NCBI RefSeq assembly: GCF_000981785.2
Contig: NZ_CP011304.1
Coordinates: 1,500,001 to 1,532,000, forward strand
Direction of reading: 5' to 3'
Length of the DNA: 32,000 nt
From: Microcystis aeruginosa NIES-2549
Lineage (GTDB): Bacteria > Cyanobacteriota > Cyanobacteriia > Cyanobacteriales > Microcystaceae
The notes beneath the pieces are model-generated. The model worked only from the letters and a program-made list of their open reading frames with translations. It searched no databases and was not told the DNA's origin. Below, piece by piece: positions 4,072 through 30,329 of the stretch. How positions within the stretch are numbered: position 1 is the first letter of the stretch; the number at the start of each line of letters is the position of its first letter. The position numbers and the translations under genes were made by a program.

Positions 4072-4080
4072 CCTCAAAGG

Positions 4081-4197
4081 CTTGACAAAACCCCACGACT
4101 TGACAGATAATTTCTTATATAATGGGAATCCGTGCCTGCCTGCGAACCCCCTCTTTTCAGGTCAAATAAAGCCCCAAAAAATTAACCCCAAAAAGTA
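4081..4197 (+). repeat. Copy A of the six-copy TTGACA/TATA/GGGAATCCGTGCCTGCCTGC module
   Basis: CTTGACA at 4081 and 4099, GATAAT at 4106-4111, TATAAT at 4118-4123, GGGAATCCGTGCCTGCCTGCGAACCC from 4124, then a T-run. The tail CAAATAAAGCCCCAAAAAATTAACCCCAAAAAGTAG is shared with copy B. Confidence 0.85.
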
Positions 4198-4210
4198 GGC
4201 TGAGTTAATC

Positions 4211-4342
4211 TCAGTTCCGGTGCTGATTCGGAGCATCTTTCAATTTGACAACGCCTATTGTAGGGCTAATTCATGAATTAGCCCTACACCTAGTAATTTC
4301 AGTTCCCATCTGATTAGGAGCATCTTTCAATTTGACAACGCC
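4211..4342. repeat. Two ~45-nt imperfect direct repeats flanking a perfect 30-nt palindrome
   Basis: 4211-4255 and 4299-4342 share ...GAGCATCTTTCAATTTGACAACGCC. The palindrome TGTAGGGCTAATTCATGAATTAGCCCTACA lies at 4259-4288 and is related to the palindrome at 17744-17773. Confidence 0.8.
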
Positions 4343-4348
4343 ACATTT

Positions 4349-5632
4349 TTACCTTACCACTGATAAACTATCAACGATTAGCGAGGGAGTATAACAGGAA
4401 CCATTCCATTGATTATCGGCCCCCAGAGCGATTAAATTCTGCAAAGCGGTATAAACATTTCCCGTTACCATTGTATCTTTAACTCGTCCGGTGATTTTGC
4501 CCTTTTCTATGCGATAACCCAGATCGATATTGACAGAAAAATCGCCCGAAATATCGGCCCCATGACCTAAAATTTGGTCGATAACTAGGCCCTCATCTAT
4601 TTGCGAGATTAAATCCTCTAAAGTTCCCTCTCCCGGTGCCACGATTAAATTAACTAAATCCGGCATGGGATAAACCCCTAAACCGGGACGAAAACCGTTT
4701 CCCGTCGGAGTAGTTTTTAACAATCTGGCCGTGGTACGATCGCTATAGAATTCCTTAACTCTACCTCCCTCAATTAAAGATAAAAATTTGGTAGGAGTTC
4801 CCTCATCATCAAAGGGACAACTATAGGGTTCTCGGTCCGGTTGTTGGGATAGGGTCAACTTTTCTGACATCACCAATTGACCAATTTTATCACTCCAGGG
4901 CGAGGACTGTTCTAAGATCTGTTTACCATTTAAAGCCATCTCCACCGTACCCCATAAGAGGGTAACTGCATTAGAGGTCAATAAAATTGGTAATTTTCCC
5001 GTGGGACTATCCACATTATTGGCTGCCCATTGTAGTCGCTGCAATAACTGTTTAATTACCGTTTCGGGATGGGGTGTACTGCGGGTATATTCCCCATCAT
5101 AAACCGCCAGAAAATCCTCCCCCCGTACCCATTCAATCCCCAGATAATAACTCAAAGCTGTATCGGTATATTGACAATATAAACCCTCGGAATTAACCAA
5201 ACGGGTGATTTCCCGTTCACATTCCCATTCACCACTACAAATAACCTCAGGATAAACTTGGCGAATATGGCCAATCATTTGATTACCCATCGCGATTAAA
5301 GATTCTACCGCCACATCCTGACCAATCGGGTCATAAACTGCCCGTCGTGGTGCCGAAAATTCGATTTCTTCCGGGGCATTGAGATAGGATAAATTTAACG
5401 CCGTTTCTACTAAAATTTCCGGTTCCACATCACCATAACCCACCGCTAACCCCGGACAACCCTCGCGCCATAATCTTAAGGCAGTTCCCACAGATTCAGA
5501 ACTTTCTAGCTGTTTGAGACGATTAGCCTCAAAAAAAACGGGATGGGAAAGGGAGGAAGATTGATAAACTTCGGCTGCCACTGCTCCCGATTTGAGAGCC
5601 AGTTCGATGAGTTGTTGCGGATCGATCGTCAT
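4349..5632 (-). CDS. pmbA: TldD/PmbA-family (peptidase U62) protein, PmbA/TldE-like
   Basis: 427-aa ORF with family-typical C-terminal region (LGHGADISGDFS, GNVYTALQNL). No HExxxH motif, so it is PmbA-like rather than TldD. Confidence 0.8.
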   Translation of the reverse strand: MTIDPQQLIELALKSGAVAAEVYQSSSLSHPVFFEANRLKQLESSESVGTALRLWREGCPGLAVGYGDVEPEILVETALNLSYLNAPEEIEFSAPRRAVYDPIGQDVAVESLIAMGNQMIGHIRQVYPEVICSGEWECEREITRLVNSEGLYCQYTDTALSYYLGIEWVRGEDFLAVYDGEYTRSTPHPETVIKQLLQRLQWAANNVDSPTGKLPILLTSNAVTLLWGTVEMALNGKQILEQSSPWSDKIGQLVMSEKLTLSQQPDREPYSCPFDDEGTPTKFLSLIEGGRVKEFYSDRTTARLLKTTPTGNGFRPGLGVYPMPDLVNLIVAPGEGTLEDLISQIDEGLVIDQILGHGADISGDFSVNIDLGYRIEKGKITGRVKDTMVTGNVYTALQNLIALGADNQWNGSCYTPSLIVDSLSVVR

Positions 5633-5903: not shown

Positions 5904-6437
5904 ATGAACTCCGCTTTCAAATTCAAACTCATCCAAGCTCTCAACAAAAAGAACGGTAACAAAGGTTTCACCCTCATCGAACTCCTAGTTGTCGTTATCA
6001 TCATCGGTGTACTGGCCGCCATCGCTCTCCCCAACCTCCTCGGTCAGGTGGCCAAAGGCAGACAAGCGGAAGCTCGCACCAACCTCGGTGTCGTTAACCG
6101 CGCCCAACAGGTTTACCGCTTGGAAAACACAACCTTTGGTACTGTATCTCAGTTGCCCGTTCAGTTTACCCTCACCTACTATACAAGTGTTAGCAATGTC
6201 AGTAATGATGCTAACGGTGCCGAGGCACATATGGCTCCTGCGGCAAACTATGTGAACGATATTCTCGAATACGGCTCTGCCGTCAGTCAAACCACCGCTG
6301 GAGTTTTTACTGCTGTTATCTGTGAACAGGCCACTCCCGCCACTTCTACTGCCCTAACCGCAGGTGTTTTAACTACTGCTGGTACTGCTAGTACGGACGC
6401 GGCTTGTGATGCTACTACTGCTCGTCCGGTTCAGTAA
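5904..6437 (+). CDS. pilA: Type IV major pilin PilA (copy 1)
   Basis: 177 aa from the ATG at 5904; the duplicate copy starts at the equivalent ATG, so the track start at 5835 is an upstream extension. Prepilin leader ...NGNKG|FTLIELLVVVIIIGVLAAIALPNL with Glu+5. Two C-terminal Cys (VICEQ, AACDA) and a Thr/Ala/Ser-rich tail. Confidence 0.92.
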   Translation: MNSAFKFKLIQALNKKNGNKGFTLIELLVVVIIIGVLAAIALPNLLGQVAKGRQAEARTNLGVVNRAQQVYRLENTTFGTVSQLPVQFTLTYYTSVSNVSNDANGAEAHMAPAANYVNDILEYGSAVSQTTAGVFTAVICEQATPATSTALTAGVLTTAGTASTDAACDATTARPVQ

Positions 6438-6736: not shown

Positions 6737-6993
6737 ATGGAGTTTGCCTTTAATCCCCCCTTGATCCCCCCTTAATAAGGGGGGCAGGGGGGATATACCC
6801 TTAATAAGGGGGGCAGGGGGGATATACCCTTAATAAGGGGGGCAGGGGGGATATACCCTTAATAAGGGGGGCAGGGGGGATATACCCTTAATAAGGGGGG
6901 CAGGGGGGATATACCCTTAATAAGGGGGGCAGGGGGGATATACCCTTAATAAGGGGGGTGTCTGACAACTTGTAACACCTACCTACTTAAGTA
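6737..6993 (+). mobile_element. MITE-like element at the pilA duplication junction (C6-run left arm, G6-run right arm) with an expanded core
   Basis: The left arm ATGGAGTTTGCCTTTAATCCCCCCTTGATCCCCCCTTAATAAGG and right arm CCCTTAATAAGGGGGGTGTCTGACAACTTGTAACACCTACCTACTTAAG both match the element at 17704-17826 in opposite orientation. Confidence 0.7.
6770..6958. repeat. Perfect 29-bp tandem repeat, 6.5 copies (CCTTAATAAGGGGGGCAGGGGGGATATAC)
   Basis: Period 29 verified by position (units start at 6770, 6799, 6828, 6857, 6886, 6915, partial at 6944). No spacers. Thirteen G6 runs on the + strand. Confidence 0.95.
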
Positions 6994-7212: not shown

Positions 7213-7746
7213 ATGAACTCCGCTTTTAAATTCAAACTCATCCAAGCTCTTAACAAAAAGAACGGTAACAAAGGTTTCACCCTCATCGAACTCCTAGTGG
7301 TCGTTATCATCATCGGTGTACTGGCCGCCATCGCTCTCCCCAACCTCCTCGGTCAGGTGGCCAAAGGCAGACAAGCGGAAGCTCGCACCAACCTCGGTGT
7401 CGTTAACCGCGCCCAACAGGTTTACCGCTTGGAAAACACAACCTTTGGTACTGTATCTCAGTTGCCCGTTCAGTTTACCCTCACCTACTATACAAGTGTT
7501 AGCAATGTCAGTAATGATGCTAACGGTGCCGAGGCACATATGGCTCCTGCGGCAAACTATGTGAACGATATTCTCGAATACGGCTCTGCCGTCAGTCAAA
7601 CCACCGCTGGAGTTTTTACTGCTGTTATCTGTGAACAGGCCACTCCCGCCACTTCTGCTGCCCTAACCGCAGGTGTTTTAACTACTGCTGGTACTGCTAG
7701 TACGGACGCGGCTTGTGATGCTACTACTGCTCGTCGGGTCAATTAA
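7213..7746 (+). CDS. pilA: Type IV major pilin PilA (copy 2)
   Basis: 177 aa. Differs from copy 1 by T>A in ATSTAL/ATSAAL and by the last three residues (PVQ vs RVN), plus 3 synonymous changes. Confidence 0.92.
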   Translation: MNSAFKFKLIQALNKKNGNKGFTLIELLVVVIIIGVLAAIALPNLLGQVAKGRQAEARTNLGVVNRAQQVYRLENTTFGTVSQLPVQFTLTYYTSVSNVSNDANGAEAHMAPAANYVNDILEYGSAVSQTTAGVFTAVICEQATPATSAALTAGVLTTAGTASTDAACDATTARRVN

Positions 7747-17499: not shown

Positions 17500-17555
17500 A
17501 AAGTCTTACAGTGGGGACCCCAGACAGGTGACAGCGTTTCCCATCAAAAAATAAT

Positions 17556-17585
17556 TTGACAGATCGGCAGCATTTGCTGTAGGAT
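17556..17585 (+). promoter_or_regulatory. Candidate sigma70-type promoter of tRNA-Ser
   Basis: TTGACA (17556-17561), an 18-nt spacer, then TAGGAT (17580-17585), 20 nt upstream of the tRNA 5' end. Confidence 0.4.
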
Positions 17586-17605
17586 TGATGATCGTGACCT
17601 CAATT

Positions 17606-17692
17606 GGAGAGATGGCCGAGCGGTTGAAGGCGCAGCACTGGAAATGCTGTTTAGGGGTAACTTTAACGAGGGTTCGAATCCCTCTCTCTCCG
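17606..17692 (+). tRNA. tRNA-Ser (anticodon GGA), class II with long variable arm; CCA not encoded
   Basis: Acceptor GGAGAGA/TCTCTCC, anticodon stem CAGCA/TGCTG with loop CTGGAAA, variable stem TTAGGG/CTTTAA, T-arm GAGGG-TTCGAAT-CCCTC, discriminator G. Confidence 0.9.
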
Positions 17693-17703
17693 TACCCAAA
17701 GCA

Positions 17704-21530: not shown

Positions 21531-21630
21531 GTTAAGCTCTACTGAATTTAAACTGCCTCTTGGGAGTTTTAGTACAAATGCTCAGGCTTTCTCTCCCAAC
21601 TCCAGCACTCCGGTGCAGTCTTAACGAGTA
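21531..21630 (-). mobile_element. MITE-like ~100-bp repeat (copy 2, inverted relative to 14418-14515)
   Basis: Reverse complement aligns with 14418-14515. Flanked at 21631-21648 by TATCAGTTATCAGTT heptamers. Confidence 0.75.
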
Positions 21631-21649
21631 TCAGTTATCAGTTCACCGA

Positions 21650-21762
21650 CTACTTTTTGGGGTTAATTTTTTGGGGCTTTATTTGACTTGACCAGAGGGG
21701 GGTCGCAGGCGCACGGATTTTCCATTATTTATATAATATCATGTCAAGCGTTGCTTGGCAAG
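21650..21762 (-). repeat. Copy B (diverged) of the six-copy module, pointing toward mfd
   Basis: Minus strand reads CTTGCCAAGCAACGCTTGACATGATATTATATAAATAATGGAAAATCCGTGCGCCTGCGACCCCCC...CAAATAAAGCCCCAAAAAATTAACCCCAAAAAGTAG. Confidence 0.75.
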
Positions 21763-21836
21763 AAAAAATTTTTTAATTGCCAGCAAAAGATCGATGGCAG
21801 CAAAACCAGTGCATCTATACCACAATATTTTCAGAA

Positions 21837-23641: not shown

Positions 23642-23670
23642 AAGTTTTCTCCCTTTCTACTGTCAAAACC

Positions 23671-23800
23671 CTTGACAAATCCCCGCCCTTGACAGATACT
23701 TATATATAGAATGGGAATCCGTGCCTGCCTGCAAACCCTCTTTTTTTAGGTTAGATAAGCGTCAAGAAAATAAAAACCTAATACCTGACCAGCGCTAAAG
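23671..23800 (+). repeat. Copy C of the six-copy module
   Basis: CTTGACA at 23671 and 23688, GATACT at 23695-23700, TAGAAT at 23707-23712, GGGAATCCGTGCCTGCCTGCAAACCC from 23713, T7, and the tail AGGTTAGATAAGCGTCAAGAAAATAAAAACCTAATACCTGACCAGC. Confidence 0.9.
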
Positions 23801-23906
23801 ACTTATACGAACAAGACTATCTTGCTTGGTTAGAAGAAACGGCCAAACAACTGCGACAAAGACAGACAGATGTATTGGATTGGGGAACCAACAGAGACAA
23901 AAATTA
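23796..23906 (+). pseudogene. 5' remnant of a DUF29 gene (start codon deleted, internally deleted, truncated)
   Basis: Aligns with 27497-27640 of the intact DUF29 gene. It lacks the GGATAGGTTATGACAACTAAAGA segment (between two CTAAAGA repeats) and ~33 nt after GATTGGG. Similarity ends near 23906. Confidence 0.8.
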
Positions 23907-23944
23907 TTATTAGTTGTAAATTTCATTATGACTAGGCTCAATGT

Positions 23945-24012
23945 AATCGCTGTTATTTTGTTGATTAAACTTTAAAATTACCATTGCTGGAACGCCAAGG
24001 GCGATCGTTTAC
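23945..24012 (+). repeat. Island repeat R2, copy a
   Basis: TCGCTGTTATTTTGTTGATTAAACTTTAAAATTACCATTGCT...GGAACGCCAAGGGCGATCGTTT aligns with 25441-25515 and 26288-26362. Confidence 0.85.
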
Positions 24013-24060
24013 AATAGGGGGCAAACTTTTAGAAAGCAACCTTTATTACTATTCTTACTC

Positions 24061-24318
24061 ATGCCCACTCTATCAAGCTTCTATGGAATAAAAATCACCA
24101 TGAACTATAACGATCACAATCCGCCTCATATCCATGCCGAGTATCAAGATTATGAAGCGGTTATAATGATTCACACAGGTGAAGTTTGTGGTCAAATGCC
24201 CAAAAGAGGACTAAATTTAATATGGGAGTGGCTTGATCTACACCAATCTGAACTATTGGAGAACTGGGAAAATGCGCGTCAAAGAAAACCTCTTAACAGA
24301 ATCGATCCCCTTCCCTAA
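24061..24318 (+). CDS. DUF4160-family protein (first gene of a TA-like pair)
   Basis: 85 aa. FYGIKITMNYNDHNPPHIHAEY and C-terminal LLENWENARQRKPLNRIDPL are typical of DUF4160 (recall). Confidence 0.8.
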   Translation: MPTLSSFYGIKITMNYNDHNPPHIHAEYQDYEAVIMIHTGEVCGQMPKRGLNLIWEWLDLHQSELLENWENARQRKPLNRIDPLP

Positions 24319-24586
24319 AAAGGAGCTATTTCTTCATGTTATCTGTGTGGAATATCTGGATAAGTATCAATTAAAGCTAACCTTTAATAATGGAATAGAA
24401 GGGATTGTAGATTTAGAACAAGAATTGTATGGAGAAATCTTTGAACCCTTAAAAGATCAAAGTTTATTTCAAAAAGTATATGTAAATAGTCGGACAATAG
24501 AATGGCCAAACGGAGCAGACTTTGCCCCTGAATTTTTATTTGAAATTGCCCTCGACAAGCAACCAGTGCGATCGCCGATTTTGTAG
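24272..24586 (+). CDS. DUF2442-family protein (second gene of the pair); start uncertain
   Basis: The core VICVEYLDKYQLKLTFNNGIEGIVDLEQ...IFEPLKD...VNSRTIEWPNGADFAPEFL matches the DUF2442 pattern. The first in-frame ATG consistent with this is 24272, overlapping the upstream gene by 47 nt. Confidence 0.7.
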   Translation: MRVKENLLTESIPFPKKELFLHVICVEYLDKYQLKLTFNNGIEGIVDLEQELYGEIFEPLKDQSLFQKVYVNSRTIEWPNGADFAPEFLFEIALDKQPVRSPIL

Positions 24587-24758
24587 GTTGGGTTGACGAA
24601 AGGAAACCCAACATTTCTACACAGAAAATATCCCCTTTCCAAAACGAATTAACACCATTATCTTTTAATTTGTTGGGTTGCGTTCCTTAACCCAACCCAC
24701 CGAATTTTTGAAAAATTTTAGTTGATCTTGTCGGTTGATACGACGAAACCCAACCTAC
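24583..24758. repeat. Cluster of three REP hairpins (GTTGGGTT...AACCCAAC) with GTAG/CTAC flanks
   Basis: GTAGGTTGGGTTGACGAAAGGAAACCCAAC (24583-24612), GTTGGGTTGCGTTCCTTAACCCAAC (24672-24696) and a degenerate CGGTTGATACGACGAAACCCAACCTAC (24732-24758). All lie directly 3' of the RAYT gene. Confidence 0.85.
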
Positions 24759-24761
24759 ATT

Positions 24762-25328
24762 TTATTCCATACCAATATCACTATCAAAGATCAGCCTTTC
24801 TGAAGCCCCCCACATCTGATCATAAATTCCTTCTTCAACATAACGATGAAAACTGGAGTGTTGCCAATCTTTCGGAGCATTTACTAATCCATGATGCACG
24901 GGATTGTAATGGATGTATTCGAGATGATTAACAAAATCTCGATCGCCGTAGGCGCGCCCTTGGCGACCATCTCGAACTTGATGCTCCCAAAAGCGACGTT
25001 GCCAAATAGCCTTTTCTCCTTTATGTTGTCGAGATGTTGAAATTTTACCCTGATATTGAGAATGACATTGACGGCTAAAATAACTTTTAATTAATCGCCA
25101 ACGAGTTGAAAAATCTGCATCTGTTTCAGGCAATGTCCAAAGAGCATGAATGTGATCTGGTAAAATGACAATAGCATCAATCTTAAAATGATGTTGTCGC
25201 ATAACATATTTAAAAGCATTTCGTAGTAAATCCACATTTTCAGGTTAACACAAAATTTTGTGACGATTGTATGTCACAACTGTAAAAAAATAAGTAGCTC
25301 CAGGTGTTTTTGCTCTACGGTATTGCAT
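24762..25328 (-). pseudogene. REP-associated tyrosine transposase (RAYT, IS200/IS605 Y1 family) with in-frame TAA at codon 28
   Basis: From ATG 25328: MQYRRAKTPGATYFFTVVTYNRHKILC, then stop at 25245-25247, then PENVDLLRNAFKYV...AIVILPDHIHALWTLPE (HUH) ...YIHYNPVHHGLV (catalytic Tyr region). The track ORF 24762-25235 is the part downstream of the stop. Confidence 0.8.
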
Positions 25329-25370
25329 CAAGTTAGAATAACATTTATTGGATTGGTGTTTACGCAACTG

Positions 25371-25402
25371 GCGTTGGGTTTCGTGCCTCAACCCAACCTA
25401 CC
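25371..25402. repeat. REP hairpin on the 5' side of the RAYT gene
   Basis: GCGTTGGGTTTCGTGCCTCAACCCAACCTACC. Confidence 0.85.
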
Positions 25403-25440
25403 AAACTTTAAGACCGCAATTCCTTTGGCTTTTGAAAGTG

Positions 25441-25570
25441 CGATCGCTGTCATCTTGTTGATTAAACGTTAAAATTACCATTGCTTGGGATAGGAACGCA
25501 AAGGGCGATCGTTTTTTGATGATGGGGAGGGGCGATTGCTTTTTGGGGAGGAGAAAGTGCGATCGCCTGC
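25441..25570 (+). repeat. Island repeat R2, copy b
   Basis: Core 25441-25515 aligns with R2a and R2c. The tail TTTGATGATGGGGAGGGGCGAT... is shared with R2c. Confidence 0.85.
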
Positions 25571-25577
25571 CCTGAGA

Positions 25578-26012
25578 TTAATCTCTCAACAAAGCTCGAA
25601 AACCAGCTTGCTGAAAATGAATATCCGTTGTTAATGCTTCCGTTATTCTACGCTCTTCCATTACAATAAAAGAAATACAGTCAACAATTCCCCAATTTTT
25701 ATCGTTTCTTTGACAATATAGTTGAAAAGCTTTTTGATAAAGAATTTCCGATAAGGGAATAACTGTCACTGTTCTGTCCTTTTCTAATGAGGACAATAAT
25801 TTAATTGACTTAGAGCGATATTTTTGTTTAGATAAAGCATTGCCAATCTCTAAAATAATGGCTCTGGTTGTAACTAAAGGTGTTTTTGAAGTTTTTAATT
25901 GTTGGGCAATGGCAAGTGCTTTATGATGATAATCGTCCGTAGATGAAGATAAAGCGATCGCATAACTTGTATCGAGAAATTTCTCAGGGTTCATGCTCTT
26001 TTTCTTCGCCAT
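25578..26012 (-). CDS. vapC: PIN-domain (VapC-like) ribonuclease toxin
   Basis: Conserved acidic residues in PIN spacing (FLDTS, ILEIGN, IVDCIS, TTD). Overlaps the upstream antitoxin-like gene. An alternative start at 25994 (MNPEKF) is equally plausible. Confidence 0.8.
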   Translation of the reverse strand: MAKKKSMNPEKFLDTSYAIALSSSTDDYHHKALAIAQQLKTSKTPLVTTRAIILEIGNALSKQKYRSKSIKLLSSLEKDRTVTVIPLSEILYQKAFQLYCQRNDKNWGIVDCISFIVMEERRITEALTTDIHFQQAGFRALLRD

Positions 26013-26217
26013 ATAAATATTTATCTAGATTTTCTGACCAATCTGAGGGGCCGTCTAGTTGTAATGATTCTGCTGTCTCTAAAAAAGAAGTGAGTTCATT
26101 ATTTTCATCCGATAAGTTATCAACAATAATGCGGACACGAGTATTAGCCTTCAATGTAACGGGTTGCTCTGGATGAAAGACCTTTCCGTCAAATAATGCG
26201 TCAATAGAATTAAGCAT
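25984..26217 (-). CDS. DUF104/AF2212-like antitoxin-family protein
   Basis: 77 aa. N-terminal ALFDGKVFHPEQPVTLKANTRVRIIV is the typical small beta-barrel antitoxin motif, with an acidic C-terminal tail. Directly upstream of and overlapping the PIN gene. Confidence 0.7.
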   Translation of the reverse strand: MLNSIDALFDGKVFHPEQPVTLKANTRVRIIVDNLSDENNELTSFLETAESLQLDGPSDWSENLDKYLYGEEKEHEP

Positions 26218-26287
26218 GATCTGTTGGTGAAATGATTTTTACTTGAAATATCTATATTATAAATGTAACACACCAAATTGATTGTTA

Positions 26288-26390
26288 TTCGCTGTCATCT
26301 TGTGGATTAAACTTTAAAACTGCCATTGCTTGGGATAGGAACGCAAAGGGCGATCGCTTTTTGATGAGGAGGAGGGGCGATCTTGTAGGT
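26288..26390 (+). repeat. Island repeat R2, copy c
   Basis: TTCGCTGTCATCTTGTGGATTAAACTTTAAAACTGCCATTGCTTGGGATAGGAACGCAAAGGGCGATCGCTTT, then TTGATGAGGAGGAGGGGCGATCTTGTAGGT (a REP-leader-like end). Confidence 0.85.
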
Positions 26391-26597
26391 GGCTCTTCGG
26401 GACTTGGTATGGTTCGATAGGGGGGCATAAATCGACTCAATCCTTATCTGGCAAGAGATTTAATTGATTAGTTCGCTCCAGATCGCCAACAATTGACAAA
26501 AATTGCGGCAATGTCTGTCTCTATAAAGGTTTCATTCCTTATAACCTCGTCCATTGCATAAGACAAACCGAAGAACCAAAAATACTCCGAAATCCTC

Positions 26598-26864
26598 GTG
26601 AACTTTATTTTAAGTCACCATGCCGAAGAAAAAATTATTCAACGCCAAATCTCTTTAAAAATATTGCAGGACATCCTCAATAATCCTGAGCAAATTTTAG
26701 AAGAAGATGGACTCAAAGTTTATCAAGGTACTTTTGTCGCCATTAACAATAAAACTTATCTTCTGAGAATTTACATTAATGACTTAGTTGAGCCTCAAAA
26801 AATTGTTACACTATATGTTACCAGTAAACTTAGAAAATATAGGCAGCTATCAAATGAAAGCTAA
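26598..26864 (+). CDS. DUF4258-family protein (toxin-like)
   Basis: 88 aa with a GTG start. SHHAEEKIIQRQISLKILQDIL matches the DUF4258 N-terminal pattern (recall). 11-nt overlap with the next gene. Confidence 0.7.
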   Translation: MNFILSHHAEEKIIQRQISLKILQDILNNPEQILEEDGLKVYQGTFVAINNKTYLLRIYINDLVEPQKIVTLYVTSKLRKYRQLSNES

Positions 26865-27057
26865 ATATGATGCTGAAGTTGACGTTTTAACAATTACCTG
26901 GCATGACACACCCGTAGAAGAAAGTGAGGCAATCAGTCCGGGGGTTATTCTTGACTATGATCAAGCAGGTAATGTAATCGGGATTGAAATTCTTAATGCT
27001 TCTCGAAAAATCGAGAATTTTTCTCCGAATGTGCAGGTAGCTATTTCTTCTCGATAA
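26854..27057 (+). CDS. DUF2283-family protein (antitoxin-like partner)
   Basis: ATG at 26854: MKAKYDAEVDVLTITW...GVILDYDQAGNVIGIEILNAS, the typical DUF2283 pattern. The track start at 26788 is an extension. Confidence 0.75.
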   Translation: MKAKYDAEVDVLTITWHDTPVEESEAISPGVILDYDQAGNVIGIEILNASRKIENFSPNVQVAISSR

Positions 27058-27094
27058 AGGTGATCGCTGATCCTGTAGTGCGATCGCTGATCTT

Positions 27095-27126
27095 GTAAGT
27101 TGGGTTGAGGTAACGAAACCCAACAT
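27095..27126. repeat. REP hairpin
   Basis: GTAAGTTGGGTTGAGGTAACGAAACCCAACAT, preceded by the same GCGATCGCTGATCTTGTA leader seen before the REP at 24583. Confidence 0.85.
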
Positions 27127-27171
27127 TACCTTTATTTCTTACCTTAATTTTTGGGGTTTCACTTCTACATT

Positions 27172-27337
27172 TTATTCCATACCAATATCACTATCAAAGA
27201 TCAGCTTTTCTGAAGCTCCCCACATCTGATCATAAATTCCTTCTTCAACCTAACGGTGAAAACTGGAATATTGCCAATCTTTCGGAGCGTTTACTAATCC
27301 ATGATGCACGGTATTCGAGATGATTAACAAAATCTCA
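27172..27337 (-). pseudogene. 3' fragment of a second RAYT gene
   Basis: Aligns with 24762-24940 (C-terminal ~55 codons) with a 14-nt deletion. Cut off at 27337 by module copy D. Confidence 0.8.
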
Positions 27338-27347
27338 ATAAAAAACC

Positions 27348-27478
27348 CTTGACAAATCCTCGCACTTGACATACACTTATATATAGAATGGGAATCCGTG
27401 CCTGCCTGCGAACCCTCTTTTTTTAGGTTAGATAAGCGTCAAAAAAATAAAAACCTAATACCTGACCAGCACTAAAGA
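27348..27478 (+). repeat. Copy D of the six-copy module, directly upstream of the intact DUF29 gene
   Basis: CTTGACA at 27348 and 27365, TACACT at 27372-27377, TAGAAT at 27384-27389, GGGAATCCGTGCCTGCCTGCGAACCC from 27390, T-run, and the AGGTTAGATAAGCGTCAAAAAAATAAAAACCTAATACC tail. The AGAGGA Shine-Dalgarno and ATG follow. Confidence 0.9.
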
Positions 27479-27487
27479 GGATAGGTT

Positions 27488-27928
27488 ATGACAACTAAAG
27501 ACCTATACGAACAAGACTATCTTGCTTGGTTAGAAGAAACGGCCAAACAACTGCGACAAAGACAGACAGATGTATTAGATTGGGAACATCTCGGAGAAGA
27601 AATCGAAGCGCTGGGGAATGAACAGAGACATAAAGTAGATAGTTATCTCCTACAATTGCTCATTCATCTGCTTCTCTACCAATACTGGCCGGAGGAACGA
27701 GAAAGATGTGCGCGGGGATGGCAGGACGAAATCGGTAACTTTCGGGTGGAATTAGAACTTTTATTGGAGTCAAAAACCCTCTATAACTATTTTTTAACCA
27801 GAATCGCCGTTATTTACCCTAAAGCAGTGAAGCGAGTCCGACAAAAAAGCCAATTACCGGCCGATATCTTTGCTGAAAGCTGCCCCTATAGTCCCGAACA
27901 AATCCTCGATTCCGATTTTCTCCCCTAA
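27488..27928 (+). CDS. DUF29-family protein (intact)
   Basis: 146 aa. LYEQDYLAWLEETAKQLR...WEHLGEEIEALGNEQRHKVDSYL...CPYSPEQILDSDFLP is the canonical DUF29 pattern. Confidence 0.85.
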   Translation: MTTKDLYEQDYLAWLEETAKQLRQRQTDVLDWEHLGEEIEALGNEQRHKVDSYLLQLLIHLLLYQYWPEERERCARGWQDEIGNFRVELELLLESKTLYNYFLTRIAVIYPKAVKRVRQKSQLPADIFAESCPYSPEQILDSDFLP

Positions 27929-27956
27929 AATTCCGGCAGATTTTTTCAAAAAAATC

Positions 27957-28070
27957 CTTGACAAATCCCCGCACTTGACAGATACTTATATATAGAATGG
28001 GAATCCGTGCCTGCCTGCAAACCCTCTTTTTTCAGGTTAGATAAGCGTCAAAAAAATAAAAACCTGATAA
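27957..28070 (+). repeat. Copy E of the six-copy module, directly downstream of DUF29 and facing the 3' end of the hydrolase gene
   Basis: CTTGACA at 27957 and 27974, GATACT at 27981-27986, TAGAAT at 27993-27998, the invariant block, a T-run, and the tail CAGGTTAGATAAGCGTCAAAAAAATAAAAACCTGATAACC. Confidence 0.9.
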
Positions 28071-28085
28071 CCGGTCCCTAACTAC

Positions 28086-28952
28086 CTATAAGCTTTTCAC
28101 CCAATCACTAATCAACCGGTTAACCTCTGTGGGAATTTCATCGTGGGGACAATGACCGGCAGTTAGATAATATTCTGTCAGAGAAGGATAGTATTGACGG
28201 AATTTGGCCCCGCGTTCCCTAGTATTCATCCAAGGGTCCCCCTCACCCCATAACATCAACAGGGGACAACTTAACTTTTGCAGGAGAATATCCACATTTT
28301 CCCCCCGGGGAGATTTAAACACAGAAGCAAAAACTTTGGCTGCTCCCGCATCCAGGGAAGGACGACGGATATCTTCTATTAACTGCTCAGTAATGGCACT
28401 GCGATCGAGATATACTTTCTCTAGGGTTTTGCGGATAGTTTTGGGTTGACGGGTATAGAGAAATAAGAGATAACTAGCCCAGGGTTGCAGCAAGATCGAT
28501 CGCAGTAATTTTTGTGCTAAATTAGGCTGACGATTGCTTTCTGTATCGCTAAAGGGACCGGCGCTATTGAGGAGAATTAATCCCCGAACATTCTCGCAAT
28601 GATTAGCAGCTACACAGAGAGAAGCGTAACCCCCCAAAGAATTACCCGCTAAAACCGTCGGTTGGCCCACAACTTCCTTGATAAAATCGTTTAATTGTTG
28701 CTGCCAAAGATTGCCACTATAGACAAGATCCGGTTTAGCTGATCTACCGAATCCTAACAGATCGATCGCCCATACTTCCCATTCTGAGGCTAAACCTTGC
28801 ACATTTTTTCGCCAATGGTCGGTGGAAGCGCCAAAACCGTGGACTAATAGTAAAGGGGGTTTTCCCGCAACTCTAGTACCCGCTTGCACATAGTGTATAG
28901 AATTTCCTTGCCATTGCCAATTTTGCTTTATCGTCAGAGCAGCTGTATTCAT
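28086..28952 (-). CDS. Alpha/beta-fold hydrolase
   Basis: 288 aa with the HGFGAS oxyanion motif, GNSLGG nucleophile elbow and a C-terminal GHCPHDE catalytic His region. Confidence 0.85.
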   Translation of the reverse strand: MNTAALTIKQNWQWQGNSIHYVQAGTRVAGKPPLLLVHGFGASTDHWRKNVQGLASEWEVWAIDLLGFGRSAKPDLVYSGNLWQQQLNDFIKEVVGQPTVLAGNSLGGYASLCVAANHCENVRGLILLNSAGPFSDTESNRQPNLAQKLLRSILLQPWASYLLFLYTRQPKTIRKTLEKVYLDRSAITEQLIEDIRRPSLDAGAAKVFASVFKSPRGENVDILLQKLSCPLLMLWGEGDPWMNTRERGAKFRQYYPSLTEYYLTAGHCPHDEIPTEVNRLISDWVKSL

Positions 28953-29038
28953 CGGCCGTTTTGTTAAGTAATGTGAATAATTCTTAGTCTAACCGATTGA
29001 GAAACTGGAGACAAAGCTAGAGATTTTTAGCCAAACCC

Positions 29039-29150
29039 CTTGACTGAAAACGGAACTTGACATATACTTATATATATAATGGGAATCCGTGCCTGCCTGC
29101 AAACCCTTCATTTTTGGGCAAATAACCCTAAAAAACACTCTCAAAAAAAT
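29039..29150 (+). repeat. Copy F of the six-copy module, upstream of the glycerate-kinase-like gene
   Basis: CTTGACT at 29039, CTTGACA at 29056, TATACT at 29063-29068, TATAAT at 29075-29080, and GGGAATCCGTGCCTGCCTGCAAACCC from 29081. The tail is divergent, with the TTTTTGGG-caaataa-CCCTAAAAA hairpin. Confidence 0.85.
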
Positions 29151-29246
29151 CTTGAGCGGGATTAATCTGCTGGTATGGGTGGCTAACCCCAGAGAATTAC
29201 TCCTGAATCATCGGGACAGTTTTTTGCTAATTCTGATATAACAGCT

Positions 29247-30227
29247 ATGAAGATTTTGACGATTTTACAGGGATTAATCGACAAAAATCCCTTAAGTCAG
29301 GCGGCTCTAGAAGATTTACTAGCGCTCGAATCCTTAAATTTTAGGGAGACTAACCCTCTCATCCTACAGGAAAGGGCGGAACTATTAACGATTCTCTGGC
29401 CGCGAGTCTGGCAAAAATGTCAGGAGTTAGGGATAAATCAGCCAAATCAGATTTTGATCAGCTGTTGGCGCTTGTGGATTCCTTGGGCGCTAGAGCTACG
29501 CAGCCACGCAAAACCGTTGATTCAAGGCATTTTGGCTCCCCAAGGCACGGGAAAGACCACCTTAACATCCATAATGTCGATTATTTTAGCCTATTTTGAT
29601 TTAAAAGTAAATAATCTCTCTTTAGATGATATTTATAAGACCTATAATGAGCGAATAAAATTGCGTCAAAAGGATAAAAGATTGCGCTGGCGTGGTCCAC
29701 CGGGTACTCATGATATAGCATTAGGAATTAAAGTTTTAGAACAGGTTTGTCAGCAAGAAAGTCCGATTTTAATCCCGCGGTTTGACAAGTCACTGCATCG
29801 AGGACAAGGAGATAGAATTGCACCGGAACAAGTGGAGCGAGTCGATATTCTTTTTTTCGAGGGTTGGTTTGTGGGCATGAATCCAGTAGAAGAAACAGTC
29901 TTTGATCATGCCCCCGATCCGATTAATAGCGAAGAAGACCGACAATTCGCCAGGGATAATAATCGAAGATTGCGAGAATATCTACCCCTCTGGTCAAAAA
30001 TCGATCGCTTACTGATTCTTTATCCCCTTGACTACCGTTACAGTTTACAATGGCGACAGGCGGCCGAAACAAAAGGAGGTATGACCCCATCAGAAATCGA
30101 GGAATTTGTCAAGTATTTTTGGAAAAGTTTACATCCGCAATTATTTCTGCCACCCCTGCTCAAACAAGCAGATCTAGTGGTAGAAATTAATCGGGATCAT
30201 AGTCTAGGAAAAATCAGTTATCAGTGA
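29247..30227 (+). CDS. P-loop kinase of the plant-type D-glycerate 3-kinase (GLYK) family
   Basis: 326 aa. Walker A APQGTGKTT, LSLDDIYKT and RGPPGTHD motifs occur in the order typical of GLYK/TDA10-like kinases (recall). Confidence 0.7.
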   Translation: MKILTILQGLIDKNPLSQAALEDLLALESLNFRETNPLILQERAELLTILWPRVWQKCQELGINQPNQILISCWRLWIPWALELRSHAKPLIQGILAPQGTGKTTLTSIMSIILAYFDLKVNNLSLDDIYKTYNERIKLRQKDKRLRWRGPPGTHDIALGIKVLEQVCQQESPILIPRFDKSLHRGQGDRIAPEQVERVDILFFEGWFVGMNPVEETVFDHAPDPINSEEDRQFARDNNRRLREYLPLWSKIDRLLILYPLDYRYSLQWRQAAETKGGMTPSEIEEFVKYFWKSLHPQLFLPPLLKQADLVVEINRDHSLGKISYQ

Positions 30228-30329
30228 GCAGTAGGCAAGAGGCAAGAGGCAAAAGAAAGCCCCAAACTTGTTACTTAACACTATTGACTGAAAACTCCCA
30301 TCTGATAACTGATAACTGATAACTGATAA
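30215..30329. repeat. Inverted heptamer arrays bracketing the kinase/ABC intergenic region
   Basis: CAGTTATCAGTGAGCAGTAGGCAAGAGGCAAGAGGCAAAAG (30215-30255, overlapping the last codons and stop of the kinase gene) and CTGATAACTGATAACTGATAACTGATAA (30302-30329). Confidence 0.9.

Follow-up and report, generated by a model that had tools for sequence, protein, structure and literature searches.

The subject of this analysis is a short intergenic module in a 32,000-nucleotide (nt) stretch of DNA from Microcystis aeruginosa NIES-2549 (contig NZ_CP011304.1, positions 1,500,001 to 1,532,000; hereafter the window, in whose own numbering all coordinates without a locus handle are given). The copy in focus lies in front of a DUF29 gene. 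A preliminary description listed it as one of six dispersed copies with tandem TTGACA boxes, a TATA-rich region, an invariant 26-nt block and a T-run, and suggested that it might be a promoter or a small RNA. A profile built from these six copies recovered exactly six matches in the whole window (E 1e-41 to 2e-30), with nothing further below the reporting limit of E=0.1. Five of them contain the exact 26-mer GGGAATCCGTGCCTGCCTGCRAACCC (at 4124, 23713, 27390, 27999 and 29081, all on the forward strand; no match in 100 shuffles), and the sixth, the copy listed at 21650, is diverged, confirming the proposed set. Sequence reading and profile alignment also agree with the description in the shared layout, the R position of the block and the grouping of the tails into subfamilies. 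The copies and their parts are compiled in Table 1, in which letters denote the locus classes introduced below.

Table 1. Module copies in the window, parts of the focal copy and adjoining genes
Feature	Position	Strand	Remarks
Module copy, class A (focal)	27340..27476	+	100 nt 5' of DUF29 start codon; nhmmer E=6e-41
Box 1, TTGACA (-35 of predicted promoter P1)	27349..27354	+	Scan TTGACA-17-TACACT, 10/12
Box 2, second TTGACA, in P1 spacer, abutting first -10-like hexamer	27366..27371	+	
First -10-like hexamer, TACACT (TAnAcT type)	27372..27377	+	
Second -10-like hexamer, TAGAAT, 6 nt past first	27384..27389	+	Candidate alternative -10 or sigma-dependent pause element
26-nt block	27390..27415	+	nt 1-11 GGGAATCCGTG, cross-lineage; nt 12-26, homogenized Microcystis-specific variant
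Pyrimidine/T-run, then AGG	27416..27429	+	No intrinsic terminator
RAYT gene 3'-end fragment, sets focal left junction (...AACAAAATCTC followed by AATAAAAAACCCTTGACA)	27165..27339	-	88% identical to 24755-24943
DUF29 gene behind focal copy	27488..27928	+	PF01724, E=9e-44
Module copy, class H; convergent intergenic, aimed at 3' end of pmbA-like gene 4349-5632(-)	4074..4208	+	Profile match
Module copy, class C; diverged block GGAAAATCCGTGCGCCTGCGACCCC, 222 nt upstream of mfd	21637..21773	-	Profile match
Module copy, class A; followed by 5' DUF29 remnant (to ~23885), then DUF4160/DUF2442	23662..23799	+	Profile match
Module copy, class A2; ends 3 nt short of stop codon of convergent alpha/beta-hydrolase gene 28086-28952(-)	27949..28083	+	Profile match
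Module copy, class B; divergent region between hydrolase gene and 326-aa gene (29247-30227)	29030..29166	+	Profile match

Pfam assignments support the gene context given earlier for mfd, the DUF29 gene, pmbA and the alpha/beta-hydrolase gene, and orthologues of the mfd-associated copy are present in L009, L023, L036 and L059. Two labels did not hold. The 326-aa gene behind the copy listed at 29039 had been called glycerate-kinase-like, but it lacks a Pfam match and its nucleoside-kinase-like matches in NCBIfam are all below threshold, so that this name is unsupported. The copy listed at 23671, in turn, faces a mere 5' fragment of a DUF29 gene (codons 4-32, without Shine-Dalgarno (SD) sequence or ATG, ending near 23885). 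The piece missing from this remnant (23787-23885) corresponds to a deletion between two CTAAAGA repeats that are visible in the intact copy at 27470-27500.

The architecture of the module was quantified in 99 parsed copies from the first set of related loci (profile matches there, n=100). Box 1 reads TTGACA in 84 and TTGACT in 10 of these copies and is followed, after 17 nt (59 copies) or 18 nt (36 copies; together 95/99), by a first -10-like hexamer (TATACT, GATACT, TACACT or GATAAT), whose T6 is invariant (99/99). A second -10-like hexamer, TATAAT in 49 copies and TAGAAT in 29, starts after a gap that measures 6 nt in 83 copies and 5 nt in 15; its A2 is found in 99/99 and its T6 in 98/99 copies, with positions 1, 3 and 5 being variable, the pattern expected of reading by sigma region 2. 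Both hexamers are under sigma-type constraint, A2 and T6 being fixed. They are followed by GGGAATCCGTG, which stands directly behind the second hexamer in 86/99 copies. A sigma-70/SigA-type promoter is defined by hexamers close to TTGACA and TATAAT, 16-18 bp apart, to which box 1 and the first hexamer correspond: in all window copies scanned they match the consensus at 10-11 of 12 positions, with TTGACA or TTGACT lying 17-18 nt before the GATACT-type hexamer, as originally described. Fifteen sites in the window score at least 10/12 as promoters, and six of these are module copies.

Comparison of 10 canonical class consensuses yielded a class-to-class identity of 1.00 for GGGAATCCGTG, 0.92 for block positions 12-26 and 0.89-0.92 for box 2 and the hexamers (box 2 itself 0.92), but it dropped to 0.60-0.64 for the spacers and to 0.25-0.55 for the tails. 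The aligned identity of box 1 (0.53-0.59) is an artefact of 1-nt offsets, since direct parsing finds TTGACA or TTGACT in 94/99 copies. Box 2 is conserved in the canonical classes, degenerate at the pfk and ureG-type loci and decayed at fumC. All copies keep the layout TTGACA, 17-18 bp, TAnnnT, 5-6 bp, TAnAAT, GGGAATCCGTG, and the elements conserved across lineages and in the old classes comprise box 1, the hexamers with their spacing, GGGAATCCGTG, CCTGC, ACCC, the T-run and usually CAGG. No tandem CTTGAC boxes were found outside modules in 470 kb.

An exact scan for a 20-mer core, covering one genome for each of 185,579 species, returned 59 loci, 57 of them in Microcystis and two elsewhere (Cellvibrio and Agreia), the level expected by chance for a 20-mer. 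Exact block copies number 2-3 in two complete genomes and up to ~14 in one metagenome-assembled genome; the window alone holds five. The module was not found in IMG/VR viral contigs, phage records or plasmid records, on which ground a phage, plasmid or viral origin was rejected, and a literal-sequence search of the literature gave no match.

In total, 118 related loci fall into at least 15 locus classes, 12 of which were recognized in the first loci, whereas the pfk and ureG-type classes came from a variant-block scan and the znuA-facing copy from a sister-lineage contig. Judging from Pfam assignments of the downstream genes, the module faces the DUF29 gene (class A), the 326-aa gene (B), mfd (C), the fumarase C gene fumC (D) and genes for an Eco57I-type restriction-modification (RM) enzyme (E), an N6/N4 methylase-Mrr fusion (F, often with the module in tandem duplicate) and HerA (G); additional copies precede the genes for phosphofructokinase (pfk) and a UreG-type GTPase, as well as znuA. 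Others are aimed at the 3' end of the hydrolase gene (A2), pmbA (H) or fumC (I, occupying the whole 120-bp convergent intergenic region) or lie in a convergent intergenic region (J), and class K comprises K1, aimed at the 3' end of a convergent gene, and K2, located in a divergent region before a 54-aa open reading frame (ORF). Nine or ten classes face unrelated co-oriented gene starts, 61-430 nt away, and five (A2, H, I, J and K1) occupy convergent intergenic regions, where they are aimed at a 3' end. Wherever the intergenic region is co-directional or divergent, the module is oriented towards the downstream gene without exception. The diversity of downstream genes bears out the initial view that it is not the promoter of one gene family.

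Several peculiarities of individual classes were noted alongside. In many Microcystis strains, fumC is flanked by two modules, a diverged sense copy and a canonical copy that faces its 3' end in the 120-bp region (e.g., L015 4808-6440; also L011, L019, L020, L030, L041, L042, L054 and L080-L116). The tandem duplicates of class F lie 228-390 bp apart (L014 1573-1906, L032 6929-7262, L037 1246-1742), with a single copy in L017. Class-specific inverted repeats surround box 1 in the pfk class (TTAGGG-TTGACAAATG-CCCTAA, L082 5127-5148) and in the fumC-antisense class (GGCGGGGCTTGACAAATCCCGCC, L015 6396-6420), and shorter ones were noticed by eye in classes D, J and B. Tandem repeats of a CTGATAA-type heptamer, resembling short tandemly repeated repetitive sequences, occur beside several copies (window 30302-30329 and 21629-21643; longer in some strains) and also downstream of the class H copies in L047-L049.

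Two facts show all the classes to be homologous cassettes and not motifs that have converged: the pfk copy differs by an insertion of ~70 nt between the block and the T-run/CAGG, and the tail of the ureG copy resembles that of classes H and C. Spacers and tails are shared between classes. The block, which had been described as invariant, is so among Microcystis paralogues but not beyond them. In the sister lineage it reads GGGAATCCGTGTCGCCCTGCAGACCC, carrying the variant GTGTCGCCCTGC instead of the Microcystis version, and within Microcystis this variant (GTGTCGCCCTG) survives at fumC, pfk and ureG. Since relatives and these loci carry GTGTCGCCCTGC, the 'invariant' 26-mer represents a lineage-specific version that has been homogenized among paralogues. 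Similarly, copies A and A2 of L072 match each other in spacer, left flank and block variant, not their Microcystis orthologues, and this closer mutual resemblance reveals concerted evolution. When compared with L072 (gene order ZnuA-ABC-module-DUF29-module-hydrolase), the window shows an insertion at ~23885-27165 between two module+DUF29 units, which carries DUF4160/DUF2442, a RAYT gene, a PIN-domain gene and DUF4258/DUF2283, a small island of toxin-antitoxin type.

On the basis of these results, we propose that the module is probably a propagated SigA-type promoter-leader cassette of ~100-125 bp, with a family that, within the reach of the searches made, is limited to Microcystis and its closest relatives. 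A reused primary-sigma promoter is the simplest account, because the TTGACA-17/18-TAnAcT arrangement, with its sigma-type constraints, always faces the downstream gene, if there is one. Each cassette consists of a usually present A/T-rich tract, TTGACA, 17-18 bp, TAnAcT, 5-6 bp and TAnAAT abutting GGG, leading into a conserved, predicted initial transcribed sequence, GGGAATCCGTG...CCTGC...ACCC, and then into a U-run and CAGG. RNA polymerase would initiate rightwards from the primary-sigma promoter, thereby transcribing an unrelated co-oriented gene in nine to ten classes and entering a convergent gene from its 3' end, in antisense, in five. The second -10-like box may serve as a second start-site selector, ~12 nt downstream of the first, or, alternatively, as a sigma-dependent promoter-proximal pause element at ~+1 to +6 of the transcript from the first promoter. 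The cassettes would have spread by duplication and recombination, and thus by promoter capture, rather than by transposition, with unequal exchange between neighbouring copies changing their number and giving rise to the DUF29 cassette arrays. Purifying selection on the polymerase-contacting core and gene conversion would together keep paralogues alike and thus explain the lineage-specific 'invariant' block.

Propagated promoters are a known kind of element, although the doubled -10 architecture of the module appears to be unusual. Putative mobile promoters (PMPs) are sequences that stand in front of non-paralogous genes of one genome and share at least 80% identity across 50 nt or more. They are described as neither associated with a known mobile element nor represented in Rfam, and their reuse has been proposed to serve the rewiring of transcription (Matus-Garcia, Nijveen and van Passel, 2012; summary, PMC3575422). 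The window copies are 87-99% identical over 51-69 nt and precede the DUF29 gene, the 326-aa gene, mfd or no gene at all. They thus resemble PMPs in placing highly similar sequence before non-paralogues and in lacking both an Rfam entry and a tie to a mobile element. However, PMPs are a descriptive class without a defined architecture, whereas the module is built on an unchanging doubled -35/-10 layout, to which a conserved, predicted transcribed leader is joined. Moreover, its family includes 3'-end-facing copies, has become fixed in all strains and in part also between species, and displays concerted evolution.

The role of a pause element is suggested by the late promoter PR' of phage lambda, in which a -10-like element occupies +1..+6, GGG stands at +7-9 and the polymerase pauses at +16/17, the pause consensus being TNYG (PMC9191641, PMC5001585). 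The module reads TAnAAT-GGG-AATCCGTG, with GGA in a minority of copies, a stretch that contains TCCG and places a T-G step at the +16/+17 offset. Should the first hexamer be the active -10, its initial transcribed region would contain a -10-like hexamer followed by GGG. The perfect TNYG (TCCG) lies 2 nt nearer the hexamer than the lambda pause offset, and the stretch that is invariant everywhere ends there. A pause of this kind could explain the conservation of TAnAAT-GGGAATCCGTG without invoking a function of the RNA. The likeness to PR' includes the -10 with a -10-like hexamer ~6 bp on, the GGG that comes next and, though with C at the +14-equivalent, a pyrimidine-G step 10-11 nt after the hexamer. 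It also extends to the spacer between -35 and -10, which in lambda houses the Q-binding element and in the module contains the conserved box 2. The module differs in being chromosomal and multi-copy and in standing before housekeeping and accessory genes; furthermore, neither a Q-like gene nor a downstream terminator was identified for it. It is tempting to speculate, although we regard this as quite unlikely, that the cassette represents the counterpart of a phage late promoter on the chromosome, present in many copies and combining a consensus promoter, a sigma-dependent pause (TAnAAT-GGG-N6-YG) and, in box 2 and/or the block, a site recognized by a trans-acting factor of its own. If so, a single promoter-proximal checkpoint would govern more than 15 housekeeping genes, defence genes and antisense transcripts that are otherwise unrelated, and the block variants GCCTGCCTGC and GTCGCCCTGC would represent two specificity classes co-evolving with the factor.

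Several points weigh against a propagated promoter-leader cassette and its proposed pause. The literature searched contained no primary transcriptome or transcription start site map of Microcystis, and promoter activity is predicted from the sequence. Five classes are without a gene to drive, and a strong promoter pointing into a convergent 3' end needs a justification of its own. In the lambda register, the +14-equivalent is C and not the T of the pause consensus, and sigma-dependent pausing is not known for cyanobacterial RNA polymerase. Conservation of box 2 is strong in the canonical classes, yet this box would have no role in a simple sigma-70 model because only 12 bp separate it from the second hexamer. 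Likewise, the near-complete conservation of block positions 12-26 in ~10 Microcystis classes seems to exceed the needs of promoter escape and may instead stem from gene conversion or a bound factor. Neither feature is explained by contacts with the polymerase, a bound factor and/or gene conversion being the candidates.

A bound factor is at the centre of a different explanation, which is compatible with a promoter but seeks the reason for the conservation elsewhere. The segment from the second -10-like box to ~+26, acting as DNA, or the 5' end of the transcript, acting as RNA, could be the shared operator or leader of a regulon, bound by one trans-acting repressor, RNA-binding protein or small RNA that co-regulates pfk, fumC, ureG, mfd, DUF29 and RM genes as well as the antisense transcripts. 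Such a function would fit the 92% identity of block positions 12-26 across canonical classes, compared to ~60% in the spacers, and the existence of two discrete block variants, GCCTGCCTGC and GTCGCCCTGC, each at several loci, as if they tracked the specificity of a factor. In addition, the housekeeping genes with the element are old, stable loci, and the block overlaps the predicted start site, a position typical of repressor operators. However, the block shows no palindrome and no clear direct repeat, and it lacks a conserved RNA structure (see below). All 76 of the 76 occurrences of the 20-mer in Microcystis are located inside modules and on the module strand, so that the genomes scanned have no fully complementary trans-RNA gene. 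The genes served are without evident functional coherence, and the homology exceeds 100 bp and includes positions that do not look functional, so that shared descent and gene conversion can account for the identity. We therefore consider a common regulon possible but rather unlikely.

The preliminary description also raised the prospect of a small RNA, in which case each module would be a self-contained gene with a transcript of ~30-120 nt, whose block acts in trans. A strong promoter-like core followed by a conserved segment of ~50 nt and a T-run, the lack of a downstream gene in several copies and terminator-like hairpins ~95-125 nt downstream of two window copies (4219-4237 and 29201-29216) would all be in line with such a family. 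Multi-copy small-RNA families with conserved hairpins and terminators, such as NsiR1 and Yfr2, are known from cyanobacteria and included in Rfam. In a comparison made via Rfam only, the module shares with them the repetition of a promoter and a short conserved, putatively transcribed segment in intergenic regions of a cyanobacterium, but it differs in lacking an Rfam match, a conserved structure and a terminator. Scans of Rfam at the gathering threshold and at E<=10 gave chance-level matches only, in agreement with the earlier remark that the module was not recognized as a named RNA family. Folding of five copies and of the opposite strand was no better than that of shuffles (z +0.3 to +1.4), and RNAalifold predicted for 60 distinct variants a consensus of -2.4 kcal/mol with only a 4-bp mini-stem. 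A 4-bp CCUR/YAGG pairing seen by eye was dropped, as it was not recovered in folding. The hairpin ahead of the T-run (-4.3 kcal/mol) is equalled by 125/200 shuffles, and no terminator was called, leading us to reject an intrinsic terminator at this position. The tails, where a terminator would have to sit, differ among classes and strains, and many copies lead straight to an SD sequence and start codon 61-100 nt downstream. With neither structure or covariation, nor a terminator at a fixed distance, nor a curated family, independent small RNAs are an improbable explanation, and this part of the original proposal was not borne out.

Equally improbable is the idea that the module is the relic of a non-autonomous transposable element, either similar to a MITE (miniature inverted-repeat transposable element) or mobilized by a RAYT/IS200 system, whose promoter-like hexamers arose by chance and have no selected function. 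The module is indeed short, intergenic and multi-copy, and five classes occupy convergent regions, which tolerate insertions. Moreover, inverted repeats flank classes H (GGTTAAATTTTT/AAAAAATTAACC), B and G. However, these repeats, 11-13 nt long and 85-100% complementary, are largely T/A homopolymers, class-specific and missing in the focal A, A2 and F copies. There are no direct repeats flanking module copies and hence no target-site duplications. The left boundaries vary even among copies of one class, and that of the focal copy is a breakpoint within a RAYT fragment, where the similarity to 24755-24943 stops at ...AACAAAATCTC, immediately before AAT. TTAA target sites or integron attC-like ends (GTTRRRY/RYYYAAC), contemplated on visual inspection of class H, were dropped because classes H and C share homology past the putative end.

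The presence of RAYT sequences within and beside the array may be taken to hint at mobilization. The RAYT gene, which codes for a tyrosine transposase associated with repetitive extragenic palindromic (REP) sequences (~24762-25330, reverse strand; NCBIfam NF047646, 150.9 bits vs a cut-off of 80; region 24580-25402), contains a single in-frame stop. REP-like palindromes of its own, GTAGGTTGGGTT...AACCCAAC, flank the gene; their sequences are unrelated to the module, and a link between the two was thus rejected. The module itself displays neither a GC-rich palindrome with a GTAG-type 5' motif nor a match to the RAYT repeats. Correia elements, ERIC and REPIN sequences (as cited in PMC3575422) are likewise short intergenic repeats able to supply promoters, and a RAYT gene lies in the same region of the window. 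Those elements, though, possess either defined terminal inverted repeats or REP hairpins, duplicate their target and combine a high copy number with polymorphic insertion. The module, with its 2-14 exact blocks per genome, shows none of these traits. The sigma-type constraint on four hexamers, which holds across lineages, and the absence from phage, plasmid and viral collections likewise argue against a relic.

Polymorphism, in particular, is lacking where it would be expected of a recently mobile element. No empty sites were found among the loci selected by the block, including the mfd and fumC copies not chosen by the 20-mer. To remove ascertainment bias, 12 Microcystis loci were also retrieved via the neighbouring hydrolase gene. 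All of them (12/12) carry A2 and/or B wherever the contig reaches, with 0 reachable sites empty; both copies are present in eight full-length loci and in L069, and the number of extra A-type cassettes in tandem varies from 0 to 2. Two contigs of a more distant lineage (81-92% protein identity, syntenic genes) have the module at the hydrolase 3' end, and one of them also has it before DUF29 and before znuA. The sole absence seen is that of the class B copy from L073, a relative with 88% identity, in which the intergenic region measures 48 bp. The hydrolase orthologues of Rippkaea and Crocosphaera have no module nearby, and synteny differs there. Because orthologous Microcystis sites are occupied and the module at the hydrolase gene is kept in the distant-lineage contigs, its copies are old and fixed, not recently mobile, and it is their tandem number that varies. 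The term 'dispersed element' is thus appropriate for homologous modules that lie scattered and have a near-consensus sigma-70-type core, but not for a mobile element.

A leaderless micro-ORF that opens at the ATG inside TATAATGGG (TATA-ATG-GGA, MGIRACLRT...) is highly improbable and was rejected: although ATG, GTG or TTG occupies this position in nearly all copies and one Leu codon is seen as CTG, CTA and TTG, most in-frame substitutions are non-synonymous, the stop varies (12-28 codons), the mfd-class copy has a frameshift and one copy starts with ACG. Methylation of the GAATC in the block at GANTC by the class F methylase was also considered and dropped, since this enzyme is a generic beta-class methyltransferase from which nothing can be inferred.

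Other features of the window were recorded in passing. Upstream of a type IV pilin-like gene (7213-7746), positions 6769-6958 form a perfect tandem array of the 29-nt unit CCCTTAATAAGGGGGGCAGGGGGGATATA (6.6 copies, 100% identity), and the short repeats at 6374/6509 are met again at 7683/7818, which hints at duplication of a segment around the two pilin-like genes. A tRNA-Ser(GGA) gene (17605-17693; region 17528-17693) is preceded by two near-consensus promoter matches (17528 and 17556), which are unrelated to the module.

If the cassettes are active, one promoter-leader unit would have been put to repeated use in Microcystis, rewiring a heterogeneous set of genes, with gene conversion keeping its copies alike. 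This set would span central metabolism (pfk, fumC), urease maturation, transcription-coupled repair, restriction-modification and small accessory genes. The module would then clearly illustrate how a promoter propagates in nature, with a history that can be followed through fixed copies, a sister-lineage variant and cassette arrays. Similarly, the conserved copies facing 3' ends would be ready cases of antisense control in a bloom-forming cyanobacterium. The doubled -10 with its GGG leads to a testable prediction on sigma-dependent pausing beyond the enterobacterial and phage models. Moreover, the cassette is a candidate for a strong, portable native promoter in a genus with few genetic tools.

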